Source: Octopus vulgaris
Taxonomy: Eukaryota
Reading direction: 5' to 3'
Assembly: GCA_951406725.2 (NCBI GenBank)
Contig: OX597841.1
Coordinates: 26,536,001 to 26,600,000, forward strand
DNA length: 64,000 nt
Part shown: piece by piece, positions 11,531 through 50,305 of the stretch
How positions within the stretch are numbered: the stretch's first letter is position 1
How the letters are laid out: each line of letters begins with the position of its first letter
Made by a program: the position numbers and the translations under genes
The notes under the pieces: model-generated
Told to the model about the DNA's origin: nothing
Database searches by the model: none
What the model saw: only the letters and a program-made list of their open reading frames with translations

Positions 11531-12281
11531 CTCTTACTCTCTTTTACTCTTTTACTTGTTTCAGTCATTTGACTGCGGCCATGCTGGAGCACCGCCTTTA
11601 GTCGAGCAAATCGACCCCGGGACTTATTCTTTGTAAGCCCAGTACTTATTCTATCGGTCTCTTTTACTTGTTTCAGTCATTTGACTGTGGCCATGCTGGA
11701 GCACCGCCTTTAGTCGAGCAAATCGACCCCGGGACTTATTCTTTGTAAGCCCAGTACTTATTCTATCGGTCTCTTTTACTTGTTTCAGTCATTTGACTGT
11801 GGCCATGCTGGAGCACCGCCTTTAGTCGACCAAATCGACCCCGGGACTTATTCTTTGTAAGCCCAGTACTTATTCTATCGGTCTCTTTTACTTGTTTCAG
11901 TCATTTGACTGTGGCCATGCTGGAGCACCGCCTTTAGTCGAGCAAATCGACCCCGGGACTTATTCTTTGTAAGCCCAGTACGTATTCTATCGGTCTCTTT
12001 TTTGCCGAACCGCTAAGTAACGGGGACATAAACACACCAGCATCGGTTGTCAAGCAATGCTAGGGGGACAAACAGACACACAAACACGCACACACATATA
12101 TATATATATATACATATATACGACAGGCTTCTTTCAGTTTCCGTCTACCAAATCCACTCACAAGGCATTGGTCGGCCCGGAGCTATAGCAGAAGACACTT
12201 GCCCAAGTTGCCACGCAGTGGGACTGAACCTGGAACCATGTGGTTGGTTAGCAAGCTACTTACCACACAGCCACTCCTGCG

Positions 12282-20570: not shown

Positions 20571-21145
20571 TACTCTTTACTCTTTTACTCTTTTACTTGT
20601 TTCAGTCATTTGACTGCGGCCATGCTGGAGCACCGCCTTTAGTCGAGCAACTCGACCCCGGGACTTATTCTTTTTTGTAAGCCCAGTACTTATTCTATCG
20701 GTCTCTTTTGCCGAACCGCTAAGTAACGGGGACATAAACACACCAGCATCGGTTGTCAAGCAATGCTAGGGGGACAAACACAGACACACAAACACATACA
20801 CGCATATATATATATATATATACGACGGGCTTCTATCGTTCTAGTCATCACCTCCATCATCATCATCATCATCATCATCACCACAACCAGCAGCACCACC
20901 ACCACCGTCACCGCCACCAGCATCACTGCTATCTACCATCACCGCCGCCGCCCTCAACACCAATAACAAGAACTTTACTTTACGACGCGCTTCTTTCAGT
21001 TTCCGTCTACCAAATCCACTCACAAGGCTTTGGTCGGTCCGAGGCTATAGTAGAAGACACTTGCCCAAGGTAGCATGCAGTGGGACTGAACCCGGAACCA
21101 TGTGGTTGGTTAGCAAGCTACTTACCACACAGCCACTCCTACGCC

Positions 21146-21195
<50 letters not shown>

Positions 21196-21551
21196 CATAT
21201 ATACACACGATGGGCTTCTTTCAGTTTCCGTCTACCAAATCCACTCACAAGGCTTTGGTCAGCCCGAGGCTATAGTAGAAGACACTTGCCCAAGGTGCCA
21301 CGCAGTGGGACTGAACCCGGAACCATGTGGTTGGTAAACAAGCTACTTACCACACAGCCACTCCTGCGCCTACGTATACATATATACGACGCGCTTCTTT
21401 CAGTTTCCGTCTACCAAATCCACTCACAAGGCTTTGGTCAGCCCGAGGCTATAGTAGAAGACACTTGCCCAAGGTGCCACGCAGTGGGACTGAACCCGGA
21501 ACCATGTGGTTGGTTAGCAAGCTACTTACCACACAGCCACCCCTGCGCCTA
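20571..21551 (-). mobile_element. SINE A with an internal templated insertion and two extra tandem 5' heads
   Basis: Heads end at ~21145, 21370 and 21551; insert at ~20835-20980. Confidence 0.85.
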
Positions 21552-22533: not shown

Positions 22534-23631
22534 GGACGGCGAGCTGGCAGAAACGTTAGCACGCCGGACGAAATGCGTAGCCGTATTTCGTTTGCCGCTA
22601 CGTTCTGAGTTCAAATTCCGCCGAGGTCGACTTTGCCTTTCATCCTTTCGGGGACGATAAGCTAAGTACCAGTTACGCACTGGGGTCGATATAATCGATT
22701 TAATCCATTTGTCTGTCCTTGTTTGTCCTCTCTGTGTTTAGCCCCTTGTGGGTAGTAAAGAAATAGGTATTTCGTCTGCCGTTAAATTCTGAGTTCAAAT
22801 TTCGCCGAGGTCGACTTTGCCTTTCATTCTTTCGGGGTCGATAAATTAAGTACCAGTTACGCACTGGGGTCGATGTAATCGACTTAATCCGTTTGTCTGT
22901 CCTTGTTTGTCCTCTCTGTGTTTAGCCCCTTCTGAGTAGTAAAGAAATGGGTATTTCGTCTGCCGCTACGTTCTGAGTTCAAATTCCGCCGAGGTCGACT
23001 TTACCTTTCATCCTTTCGGGGTCGATAAATAAGTACCAGTTATGCATTGGGGTCGATGTAATCGACTTAATCCGTTTGTCTGTCCTTGTTTGTCCTCTCT
23101 GTGTTTAGCCCCTTCTGAGTAGTAAAGAAATGGGTATTTCGTCTGCCGTTACGTTCTGAGTTCAAATTCCGCCGAGGTCGACTTTGCCTTTCATCCTTTC
23201 GGGGTCGATAAATAAGTACCAGTTACGCACTGGTGTCAATGTAATCGACTTAATCCGTTTGTCTCTTCTTCTCTGTCCTGTCTGTGTTTAGCCCCTTGTG
23301 GGTAGTAAAGAAATAGGTATTTCGTCTGCCGCTACGTTCTGAGTTCAAATTACGCCGAGGTGCCTTTCGGGGTCGATTAAATAAGTACCAGTTACACACT
23401 GGGGTCTATATAATCGACTTAATCCGTTTGACTGTCCTTGTCTGCCCCCCCCCCCTGTGTGTAACCCCTTGTGGGCAGTAAAGAAATAAGAAACGTTTGC
23501 ACGCCGGACGAAACGTTAGAACGGCATTTTCGTCCATCTTTACTTTCAGAGTTGAAATTCCGCTGAGGTCGACTTTGTCTTTCATCCCTTTCGGAGTCGA
23601 TAAACAAAGTACGAGTTAAACACTGGGGTCA

Positions 23632-31907: not shown

Positions 31908-31980
31908 TCATCAGTCAAGAACCGGATCATCTTCGCAATTTCGGCTGATTAATCTTGAGATTGCTCCGACCTGGGCAGCC
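31908..31980 (-). ncRNA. Candidate non-circularly permuted, pseudoknotted hammerhead with kink-turn (family H6; element ~31835-31992)
   Basis: Minus strand: GGCTG c CCAGGTC GGA GCAAT C TCAAGA ttaat CAGCC GAAA TTGC GAA GA T GATCCGG t TCTTGA CTGATGA. All HHR core nucleotides and three core-flanking stems are present, in non-standard order. Confidence 0.6.
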
Positions 31981-31988
31981 ACCAAGGG

Positions 31989-32112
<124 letters not shown>

Positions 32113-33185: not shown

Positions 33186-33277
33186 TTTTCGCTGATGAGT
33201 ACGGGACACTTGTATTTGCTGCAATATTTGCAGCTTTTAATAAAGCTGTTCTTCATATGAAACAATTGTACTGAAAA
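33186..33277 (+). ncRNA. Degenerate type I hammerhead (family H3)
   Basis: Homologue of 56047-56135; stem II decayed (CGTAC to CATAT) and stem I has lost one base. Confidence 0.65.
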
Positions 33278-36290: not shown

Positions 36291-36595
36291 TGTGTATTAG
36301 TGTGTGTGTGAGTGTACATGCGAGTATGTATGTGTGTGTACGTGAGCATGGTTGTGTTTGTATGTGTATTCGTGTTGGTCCCCCATAATCTTCATATCAG
36401 ATAGGTCCAGAAAAAAGGGATATATCAAGCAATGGGATCAATCTGTTTGTCTAACCCTTTAATGCGGTGCTCCAGCTTGGCAGCGGTCCAATGAGGGAAT
36501 CAAGTGGAAGATAAAATAACTTGATGATGATGTAACTACACGTTGTAATAACAAGTTAGTTTCACCATCGACAGGTTTTATTTTTTTATCTTTTT

Positions 36596-37451
36596 GGCTG
36601 TGTGGTAAGTAGCTTGCTTACGAACCACATGGTTCCGGGTTCAGTCCCACTGCGTGGCACCTTGGGCAAGTGTCTTCTAGCATAGCCTCGGGCCGACCAA
36701 AGCCCTGTGAGTGGATTTGGTAGACGGAAACTGAAGGAAACCCGTCGTATATATGTATATAGGAGTGGCTGTGTGGTAAGTAGCTTGTTTACCAACCACA
36801 TGGTTCCGGGTTCAGTCTCACTGCGTGGCACCTTGAGCAAGTGTCTTCTACTATAGCCTCGGGCCGACCAAAGCCTTGTGGGTGGATTTGGTAGATGGAA
36901 ACTGAAGGAAACCCGTCGTATGTATGTCTAATCCTGCACATTCCATAATTTCTGTCAAACGCTACAAGACTCAGATATGAGACCCACAACCCCAATGTAG
37001 TATTGGTCCGACATTTGGGAAGTCACCGTTGTCAGTCAAGAGCAGGGGTCGACGAACCGGGGTAGATTACCCGAAGTGGGGGTAAAAAGGAAATTCTTAG
37101 GGATAATGAGGACTCATTAGACGTACTCTTTTATTCTTTTTAGGGTGGCCATGATAGTCGAAGAAATCGACCTCAGGACTTATATTTTGTAAGCCTAGTA
37201 CTTATTCTATCGGTTTTCTTTTGCTGAACTGCTCAGTTACGGGGACAAACACAGACACACAAACACAGACACACAAACACAGACACACAAACATATACAC
37301 ATATTTATACATATATATGACAGGATTCTTTCAGTTTCCGTCTACCAAATCTATAGTAGAAAACACTTGCCCAAGGTGCCATGCACTAATACTGAACCCG
37401 GAACCATGTGGTTGGTAAACAAGCTACTTACCACACAGCCACTCCTGTGCC

Positions 37452-49689: not shown

Positions 49690-50305
49690 ATACTTTATTT
49701 ACATTATTTACATTTGACGGATATTTGTCCCCAGCTAGTTTGTTGTTAACACAACCTTTCGGCTGATGTATTCTCCAGCCTTCATCAGGTGTCCTGGGGA
49801 AATTTCGAACCTGGGTTCTCATTCTTAAGGTATTTTTCGATGTTGTTGTTGTTGTTATTCAGGTCACTGCCTGGAATCAAACTCGGAATTTTGGGGTTAG
49901 ACCCCGCGCTCTTAACCATATGCCCGTGGGCATATATGGAGTGAATTTTGGGGCTTATAAATCTAATATTTTCTTATCCTTCCTTATTACCGGTTTCCAT
50001 ATGCTACTCATATCTGCACTAGGTCTGCTTAGGAGGTTATTATGTCCTAGCATATGTGCTACCTCTTTTAGTTTTCGTATTTTCCAGTGGTGTTCTCTGT
50101 CTATGATTTTAACTTCATCCCACAGGCTGAGGTGGTCTGCGTCTTTCCGTACATGATCAGCTATACCTGATTTATCACTATCTCCCCGTATCATAGCTTT
50201 GCGATGTTCGTCTACCCTTATTTGGAGGTGGCAGCATGTTTCGCCTTTGTATAACCTACCACAGCTGCATGGGATGGAGTACACGTAGTCGTTGATCGTA
50301 TTCTC
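49690..50305 (-). mobile_element. Penelope-like element 3' end: GIY-YIG ORF remnant (50284-49955) plus pLTR
   Basis: VYSIPCSCGRLYKGET...RVDEH is the PLE GIY-YIG signature; followed by a tRNA-like segment and an HHR. Confidence 0.9.
49749..49792 (-). ncRNA. Minimal type I hammerhead in the PLE pLTR (stem III apparently mutated)
   Basis: ACAC-CTGATGA-A-GGCTG n10 CAGCC-GAAA-GG-TT-GTGT; AGGT replaces the palindromic ACGT seen in other families. Confidence 0.8.

Follow-up and report, generated by a model that had tools for sequence, protein, structure and literature searches.

A rearranged hammerhead motif was identified on the minus strand of a 64,000-nucleotide stretch of the Octopus vulgaris genome (contig OX597841.1, positions 26,536,001 to 26,600,000; hereafter the window), and the analysis confirmed that the motif is real and not a chance arrangement. 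It very probably represents a hammerhead of the non-circular class, with its blocks in the cyclic order C-S-G, which is located at the 3′ end of Naiad-type Penelope-like elements and of probably dependent non-coding elements, possesses a four-way junction built with two additional helices (P1 and P2) and is predicted to cut after H17. Helices I, II, IIIa and IIIb are shown by covariation, with weaker support for P1 and P2. The motif is a real and new hammerhead variant, the supplementary alignments of Eckert et al. (2023; PMC10085705) being a source that could bear on its novelty.

The motif lies within a 5′-truncated copy of a young, non-coding Penelope-like repeat, designated subfamily A, at positions 31994–31812 of the window (positions are given in the direction of the minus strand), which is flanked by an (AG)n/(TA)n tract and by a (TA)n tail. 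All of the strands named in a first-pass annotation of this DNA were recovered between 31980 and 31908 of the minus strand, as was the (TA)n tail which it had described. The 5′ end of the copy, at approximately 31994, falls inside the upstream hairpin P2, leaving a remnant of its 3′ strand (31994–31982) at the place where full copies fold P2, with the 5′ strands of both P2 and P1 missing. One unpaired base (31981) precedes the 5′ strand of stem II (31980–31976), the first base of which is G10.1. This is followed by the 5′ strand of stem IIIb (31974–31968), constituting the NC helix of a kink-turn (k-turn), by the non-bulged strand of the k-turn (31967–31965; 3n G, 2n G and 1n A) and by block S (31964–31959), which comprises the 5′ strand of stem IIIa (31964–31961), U16.1 (31960) and C17 (31959). 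By analogy with hammerhead chemistry, the cut is predicted between 31959 and 31958.

Immediately 3′ of this predicted site lie a strand of stem I (31958–31953), a 5-nt linker leading from stem I to stem II (31952–31948) and block G (31947–31935), containing the 3′ strand of stem II (31947–31943), GAAA (31942–31939) and the 3′ strand of stem IIIa (31938–31935). The bulged strand of the k-turn (31934–31929) carries the bulge GAA (31934–31932) followed by 1b G, 2b A and 3b U, with tandem G.A/A.G and U.G pairs. The 3′ strand of stem IIIb (31928–31922) pairs with its 5′ strand with one A.C mismatch and two G.U pairs. The 5′ half of a split block C (31920–31908) consists of the 5′ strand of stem I (31920–31915), which pairs with 31958–31953, and CUGAUGA (31914–31908). 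Beyond it is found the 3′ strand of P1 (31905–31891), which forms 15 bp with a strand just upstream of P2 in full copies and is orphaned in the window copy. Stem II, blocks S and G and the half of block C were assigned by covariation and a position check, the stem IIIb strands by covariation and a comparison of subfamily A with an older subfamily B, the stem I strand 3′ of the predicted cut by covariation and two compensatory changes between these subfamilies, and the k-turn strands by a position check and a tally over families. The linker was assigned by a linker tally.

In total, 2213 candidate relatives of the window element were found, with the best 40 scored all being 98–100% identical to it, and a pattern of the shared blocks G and C gave 6,338 exact matches in the genome versus none for a reversed control. 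Copies of subfamily A have a common fixed 3′ end followed by (TA)n while their 5′ truncation varies, and partial tandems with units of approximately 0.8 kb were found at four loci (L007, L009, L028 and L030); the family thus displays the Penelope-like traits of partial tandem repeats, 5′ truncation and a fixed 3′ end. Subfamily B was reached via a 71%-identical neighbour, its discovery being based on DNA similarity and not on the core pattern. Across 73 nt the two subfamilies differ at 14 positions, of which six form three compensatory pairs, two improve pairs, five lie in linkers or the bulge and one is at the free position N7, with none of the 14 breaking a pair or altering a core base. The hammerhead core (CUGANGA, GAAA and UH beside their stems) is kept in both of these similarity-found subfamilies, and the expectation of the first-pass annotation that homologues would retain CUGANGA/GAAA along with compensatory stem changes is borne out between them. 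Neither within the two subfamilies nor upstream of them was an ORF found. It should also be noted that units of both subfamilies have a common CACGTGAC motif located 300–360 nt upstream of the ribozyme, and that A/B units (L028, L040, L042 and L050) have a conserved start, after which come a GTAAGT resembling a 5′ splice site and a long run of pyrimidines.

To extend the comparison beyond these subfamilies, three genome patterns designed to avoid A and B were used, in which the core, the k-turn GA pairs and the spacing were fixed and no pairing was imposed. These gave 394, 793 and 156 matches (overlapping sets) versus 12, 10 and 2 for the reversed controls. Up to 30 of the first 100 matches per pattern were sampled, along with 20 picked by eye for diversity, and together with earlier loci these provided 138 distinct matches (three truncated ones being dropped) in 49 clusters, the core bases in most families being imposed by the search pattern. 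In a partner-swap test on the 49 clusters, stems I, IIIa, IIIb and upstream stem II each scored above all 1000 swaps, with a downstream stem II remaining at chance level (2.39 vs. 2.43).

An alignment of 38 rows (A1) was then considered, chosen by spacing and not by pairing, which contains 37 of the 49 medoids and locus L144, and includes truncated and chance rows. Twelve medoids with spacing outside the range were dropped, the window copy replaced L005, and L093 was re-anchored by two bases. In A1, 73.6% of cells were paired versus 56.0 ± 1.1% after shuffling, a value reached by none of 500 shuffles, and double-sided changes numbered 206 versus 89 in shuffled alignments. Relatedness among the rows can inflate such covariation counts; this is argued against by the slid controls, which were only 27–42% paired, and by the failure of the downstream structure on the same rows, where stem II placed after CUGANGA gave 32.4% versus 32.5% shuffled. 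Covariation of stems I, II, IIIa and IIIb, which had been proposed at the outset as a check of the model, was therefore found on both A1 and the 49 clusters, and the strand order first described, with stem II supplied from upstream, is backed across families.

These results bear on two simpler readings of the motif. The first is that of chance pairing in a decayed repeat, or of a shuffled remnant of canonical minimal hammerheads, a reading which has in its favour that a canonical minimal hammerhead at 49788 of the window (minus strand) has the same stem II sequence and that the isolated stretch folded no better than shuffled sequences (z 0.39). The latter result, obtained with a program that cannot form pseudoknots, is as expected when three helices of a fold cross. 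The covariation of all four helices and the presence of thousands of copies in dozens of families speak against this reading, as does a metagenome control in which one fixed-spacing pattern gave at least 121 matches; none of those listed was above 14 of the 21 model pairs, a level exceeded by 68 of 70 distinct octopus matches (many of the 70 being close copies). Chance pairing is refuted by the covariation on A1, and the reading as a whole retains next to no probability. The second reading is that of an ordinary type-SGC hammerhead with an intact block C, in which the bases right after CUGAUGA form stem II and the match found upstream is a coincidence. In subfamily A alone, four bases after CUGAUGA could indeed pair near GAAA, but this pairing is absent in subfamily B, downstream pairing is at chance across families and it is the upstream strand that covaries. 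This reading is accordingly highly improbable, its downstream stem II being refuted by both the swap test and the A1 test.

Full copies contain a hairpin, P2, whose end is at G10.1, and the strand preceding this hairpin forms helix P1 with the bases that follow CUGANGA. The P1 5′ strand, together with the part of P2 missing from the window copy, is kept in 28 of 33 subfamily A copies. Among 26 families examined, no flush P2 was found in 11, and nine of the 15 families with P2 showed flush P1/P2 helices with 4–5 Watson-Crick pairs, the sequences of which differ. A flush-junction test, the third version of the P1 test to be tried, gave 3.2 versus 2.18 Watson-Crick pairs of five, a result matched in 2 of 5000 swaps. 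Significance was not reached by a 7-nt P1 test in which G.U pairs were counted (479 of 2000 swaps), and a junction search exceeded its swap control only slightly (8.19 vs. 7.70), the weakness of these earlier tests being attributed to the strands being pyrimidine-rich and purine-rich in all families. The junction of subfamily A is imperfect, with two mismatched pyrimidine positions following A9 and a single spare base ahead of G10.1, and the nested part of the model has an energy of −40.8 kcal/mol versus −54.3 kcal/mol for an alternative fold (pseudoknots unscored). According to the model, P1 and P2 would abut and stack with the nick between them holding A9 beside G10.1, which together with stem II and the sheared G.A would make up a four-way junction.

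The opening of the chain between A9 and G10.1, as described in the first-pass annotation, is backed by covariation, but it is not a free opening, as in full copies it is closed by the P1/P2 four-way junction. The window copy is a truncated passenger lacking this junction and probably a poor or dead catalyst. The transcript 31990–31895 that had been suggested as test RNA is hence the wrong RNA, as it is without the P1/P2 junction of full copies, and an RNA made from the window copy could fail falsely because half of P2 has been lost along with the P1 5′ strand. One further family (L061–L068, L072, L075–L078 and L082–L089) shows the split order described here together with a strong P1/P2 junction, with a different stem III internal loop that lies outside the standard k-turn register.

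The k-turn that had been proposed in stem III was recovered as a 3-nt bulge and tandem G.A/A.G pairs between two covarying helices. The search pattern itself contained the GA pairs, but they are also kept in subfamily B and in the published elements Naiad_Obim and Naiad_Ovul. The 3b.3n pair was mostly non-Watson-Crick among 25 well-paired families (U.U in seven, C.C in five, U.G in four, C.U in three and others in six). A G at 3n or a C at 3b is reported to permit ion-induced folding of k-turns (PMC4382518), a rule that the U.G of the window copy fits. The octopus k-turn resembles the standard one in its 3-nt bulge, its tandem G.A and A.G and its non-Watson-Crick 3b.3n pair, and differs in being situated in a hammerhead stem III, for which no natural k-turn was found in a literature search. 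In octopus the stem III arm is bent by this k-turn; the Naiad ends of cnidarians and ctenophores, read by eye, have a bulge or an additional junction at the bend. The stem I–II linker (31952–31948) probably makes a tertiary contact, judging from its sequence. A central UAA is usual for this 5-nt linker in the octopus families, and the identical sequence was seen in Acropora and Morbakka records.

With a reported k-turn angle of 50° (PMC5061560), a rigid-rod estimate for the octopus RNA gave a gap of 10–12 Å for a one-base linker, the reach of which is approximately 13 Å. By this estimate closure as a monomer would be feasible in octopus, if tight or marginal, and hard for the longer coral arm. 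A monomeric fold is what we infer, with a swapped dimer of two tandem copies kept in consideration because monomer closure is tight, and of the two the monomer is modestly favoured. Such a dimer would be a sub-case of the preferred explanation, requiring a tandem transcript, in which one copy contributes S and G and the other the split C and the four-way junction, with each stem III arm capping stems I and II of its partner. It is a tentative possibility, for which the marginal monomer closure (worse for the coral arm), the occurrence of the elements as partial tandems and the reported cleavage of minimal Penelope-like hammerheads as dimers or trimers and not as single motifs (PMC4209133) can be cited. 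On the other hand, helix and linker lengths in octopus are tightly kept and fit a kink of 40–50°, and type-SGC ribozymes are reported to cleave during transcription of single-motif constructs (PMC10085705). The covariation is the same for a monomer and a swapped dimer and does not discriminate between them.

The proposed full RNA reads, from its 5′ end, P1 5′ strand, hairpin P2, II, IIIb, k-turn, IIIa and the UH cut site, followed by stem I, the 5-nt linker, II, GAAA, IIIa, k-turn, IIIb, I, CUGANGA and the P1 3′ strand. In this RNA the k-turn would turn the stem III arm back so that the distal ends of stems I and II are capped by IIIb, comparable to the interaction helix of type-SGC RNAs. The core would then cut after H17 by ordinary hammerhead chemistry, and cuts in two tandem copies would release unit-length element RNA, also from read-through transcripts, a role that has been proposed for other Penelope-like hammerheads (PMC4209133). 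Self-cleavage of the octopus motif is predicted by analogy with related non-circular hammerheads, which cleave in vitro (PMC10085705). The hammerhead of the Penelope-like element Poseidon is reported to need the element protein to cut and to be dispensable for insertion in vitro (PMC11167929), and for this reason the activity of the octopus motif may be low or assisted.

It could also be suspected that the structure, while real and derived from a hammerhead, is kept for recognition or priming by the reverse transcriptase (RT) with little or no self-cleavage. This is consistent with the insertion of Poseidon in vitro without hammerhead cleavage and with no reads ending at its cut site (PMC11167929), and also with the spread of subfamily A despite its imperfect junction. 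Against it, the core bases, UH and G10.1-C11.1 are kept between the similarity-found subfamilies, and the same core is seen by eye in the Naiads of other phyla where the outer helices are entirely different. Furthermore, N7 and H17 vary among families as hammerhead chemistry allows, H17 being C, A or U (G was excluded by the pattern). A role without cleavage is therefore considered unlikely, and a self-cleaving hammerhead of the non-circular class remains the preferred reading.

The relationship of the motif to known hammerheads was examined using the blocks S, G and C of Eckert et al. (2023; PMC10085705), which were assumed there to be uninterruptible and of which six orders were counted. The order in the octopus motif is II, S, G, I-CUGANGA and not the circular C-G-S of types I, II and III; the first-pass annotation had recognised this, and its view is confirmed by the strand check and by an Rfam scan of the window and six relatives, which returned no hammerhead match. 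It had left novelty to a comparison with published permuted hammerheads. As far as the accessible parts of that paper show, the S-G-C order belongs to a known non-circular class and the splitting of block C is new. The 5′-to-3′ order S-G-C is present in the octopus RNA without an uninterrupted block C, a downstream stem II being at chance, and it would thus work like type SGC without being a member of it. Type-SGC RNAs (HRIMA-1 and its variants; PMC10085705) are alike in their S-G-C order and all core bases, as well as in having a short stem I–II linker and a helix that connects stems I and II on their other sides. The octopus connectivity would be obtained by linking the two ends of a type-SGC RNA, with IIIb as the putative counterpart of their interaction helix. 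The types CSG, known from two metagenomic sequences, and GCS (PMC10085705) have the same cyclic block order and differ from each other and from the octopus RNA only in the point of opening, which lies between blocks in these two types and in an added helix inside block C in octopus.

Insertions in the hammerhead core are listed at other positions only in the available text of Perreault et al. (2011; PMC3088659), while one extra base between 9 and 10.1, with low and dimer-dependent activity, is described by Cervera and de la Pena (2014; PMC4209133). The minimal type I hammerheads in Penelope-like pLTRs of the latter study share with the octopus RNA their location near the 3′ end, an occurrence in partial tandems and in many families per genome, the pair G10.1-C11.1 and a tolerated insertion at 9/10.1. 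They differ in their canonical C-G-S order, where the octopus RNA is non-circular; at 9/10.1 they have a single extra base, where it has two helices; and their stem III is almost absent, where that of the octopus RNA is long and bent. A 2026 retrozyme preprint (10.64898/2026.07.22.740005), as far as its accessible text shows, used only canonical and minimal type I models. A literature search that covered few subscription papers found no report of the split order, nor of a Naiad ribozyme or of animal hammerheads of the non-circular kind. Should cleavage occur as predicted, the textbook wiring of this ribozyme would be extended by a split block C, beyond the six orders counted (PMC10085705), and non-circular hammerheads would move from rare environmental sequences to high-copy animal genomes. 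With its k-turn strut and two helical arms that are free at A9/G10.1, such a core could also serve as a scaffold for structural work and for the engineering of regulated ribozymes.

Regarding the host elements, Craig et al. (2021; PMC8557442) state that Naiads lack canonical hammerheads and that those of cephalopods have long been inactive. The same source places unexplained "HHR_core" and "HHR_half_core" marks on Naiads that fit no descriptor, including Naiad_Ovul, and shows an N-terminal GIY-YIG endonuclease in the published Naiad_Ovul protein. By eye, the 3′ ends of Naiad_Obim and Naiad_Ovul in its supplement match one octopus family (L143–L162) and have the same architecture, with k-turn and flush junction. 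A Penelope-type RT was located upstream of the motif on the same strand at 11 of 30 RT loci of this family (RVT_1, E 1.3e-5, below the curated cut-off). RT and motif were also seen by eye at 4 of 20 more distant loci, and an RT with a downstream motif was present at all eight extended loci, which had been chosen from the positives. No N-terminal endonuclease motif was found at these eight RT loci, which are truncated or decayed, and the name Naiad consequently rests on the supplement match.

The same split order was read by eye in the record ends of Acropora (Amil, Aacu and Anas), Clytia (Naiad-3), Morbakka (Naiad-2) and Beroe, these coral, hydrozoan, cubozoan and ctenophore consensi having been found by reading the supplement (PMC8557442) and not via the search pattern. 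P1 and P2 are visible by eye in the Acropora and Beroe ends, and stem I is only 2 bp long in Beroe. Five nematode Naiad record ends were read as type CSG, in which stems I and II are connected by a long helix; many others were unparsable by eye or had no such motif in the 230–320 bases displayed. The unexplained marks would be accounted for by the split order, which offers a candidate answer to the puzzle of the apparently missing Naiad hammerheads; standard descriptors cannot see this order.

The family of the window probably depends on Naiads, judging from the ribozyme, the (TA)n targets and the element structure that they have in common. This dependence rests on shared features since no RT was found upstream of subfamily A, subfamily B or the other pattern families, and, apart from 10 nt of the ribozyme, the bodies of all these families have no nucleotide similarity to the 3′ UTR of the Naiad_Ovul type. 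The family is like the Naiad clade (PMC8557442) in its (TA)n targets, partial tandems and 5′ truncation, and differs in being non-coding and young, with copies 98–100% identical. It is likely that Naiads across animals carry unrecognised non-circular hammerheads, namely a seventh permutation with a split core and a four-way junction in octopus, corals, a hydrozoan, a box jelly and a comb jelly, and type CSG in nematodes. These would be the first in eukaryotic genomes, present in thousands of copies and possibly cutting only as a swapped dimer in tandem transcripts. Bivalve Naiad and Naiad-1_Movir record ends have conserved 3′ motifs which we take to resemble twister ribozymes, and this would suggest that Naiads swap ribozyme classes at their 3′ position.

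Two other element types were considered as possible hosts and rejected. A link to the Hydra clade, suggested by locus L073, turned out to be a neighbouring insertion; among 30 Hydra-type loci whose GIY-YIG endonuclease is C-terminal, the rearranged pattern was downstream in two, one being the seed locus, and a canonical core in 17. A link to a young element with a C-terminal endonuclease was dropped because it lacks the rearranged motif and resembles none of the element loci. This young Penelope-like element (L193, G000:C3:61674000-61680500, and L194) has an intact 753-aa ORF with RT and C-terminal GIY-YIG, a 380-aa ORF upstream and a minimal hammerhead with a U3/A8 core variant near its 3′ end. 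The Hydra-type element (L112–L141), also with a C-terminal endonuclease, is abundant and decayed, with 14,895 first-look candidates, and its 3′ end is a canonical minimal hammerhead. Within the window, minimal Penelope-like hammerheads of canonical order were detected at 49788 (−), 28122 (+), 44054 (+) and 55741 (−), several having one extra base between A9 and G10.1, along with partial cores at 33192 (+) and 56053 (+). The window also contains tandem arrays of 112–225-nt SINE-like units at 11547–12001, 20982–21551, 22583–23488 and 36595–36927.
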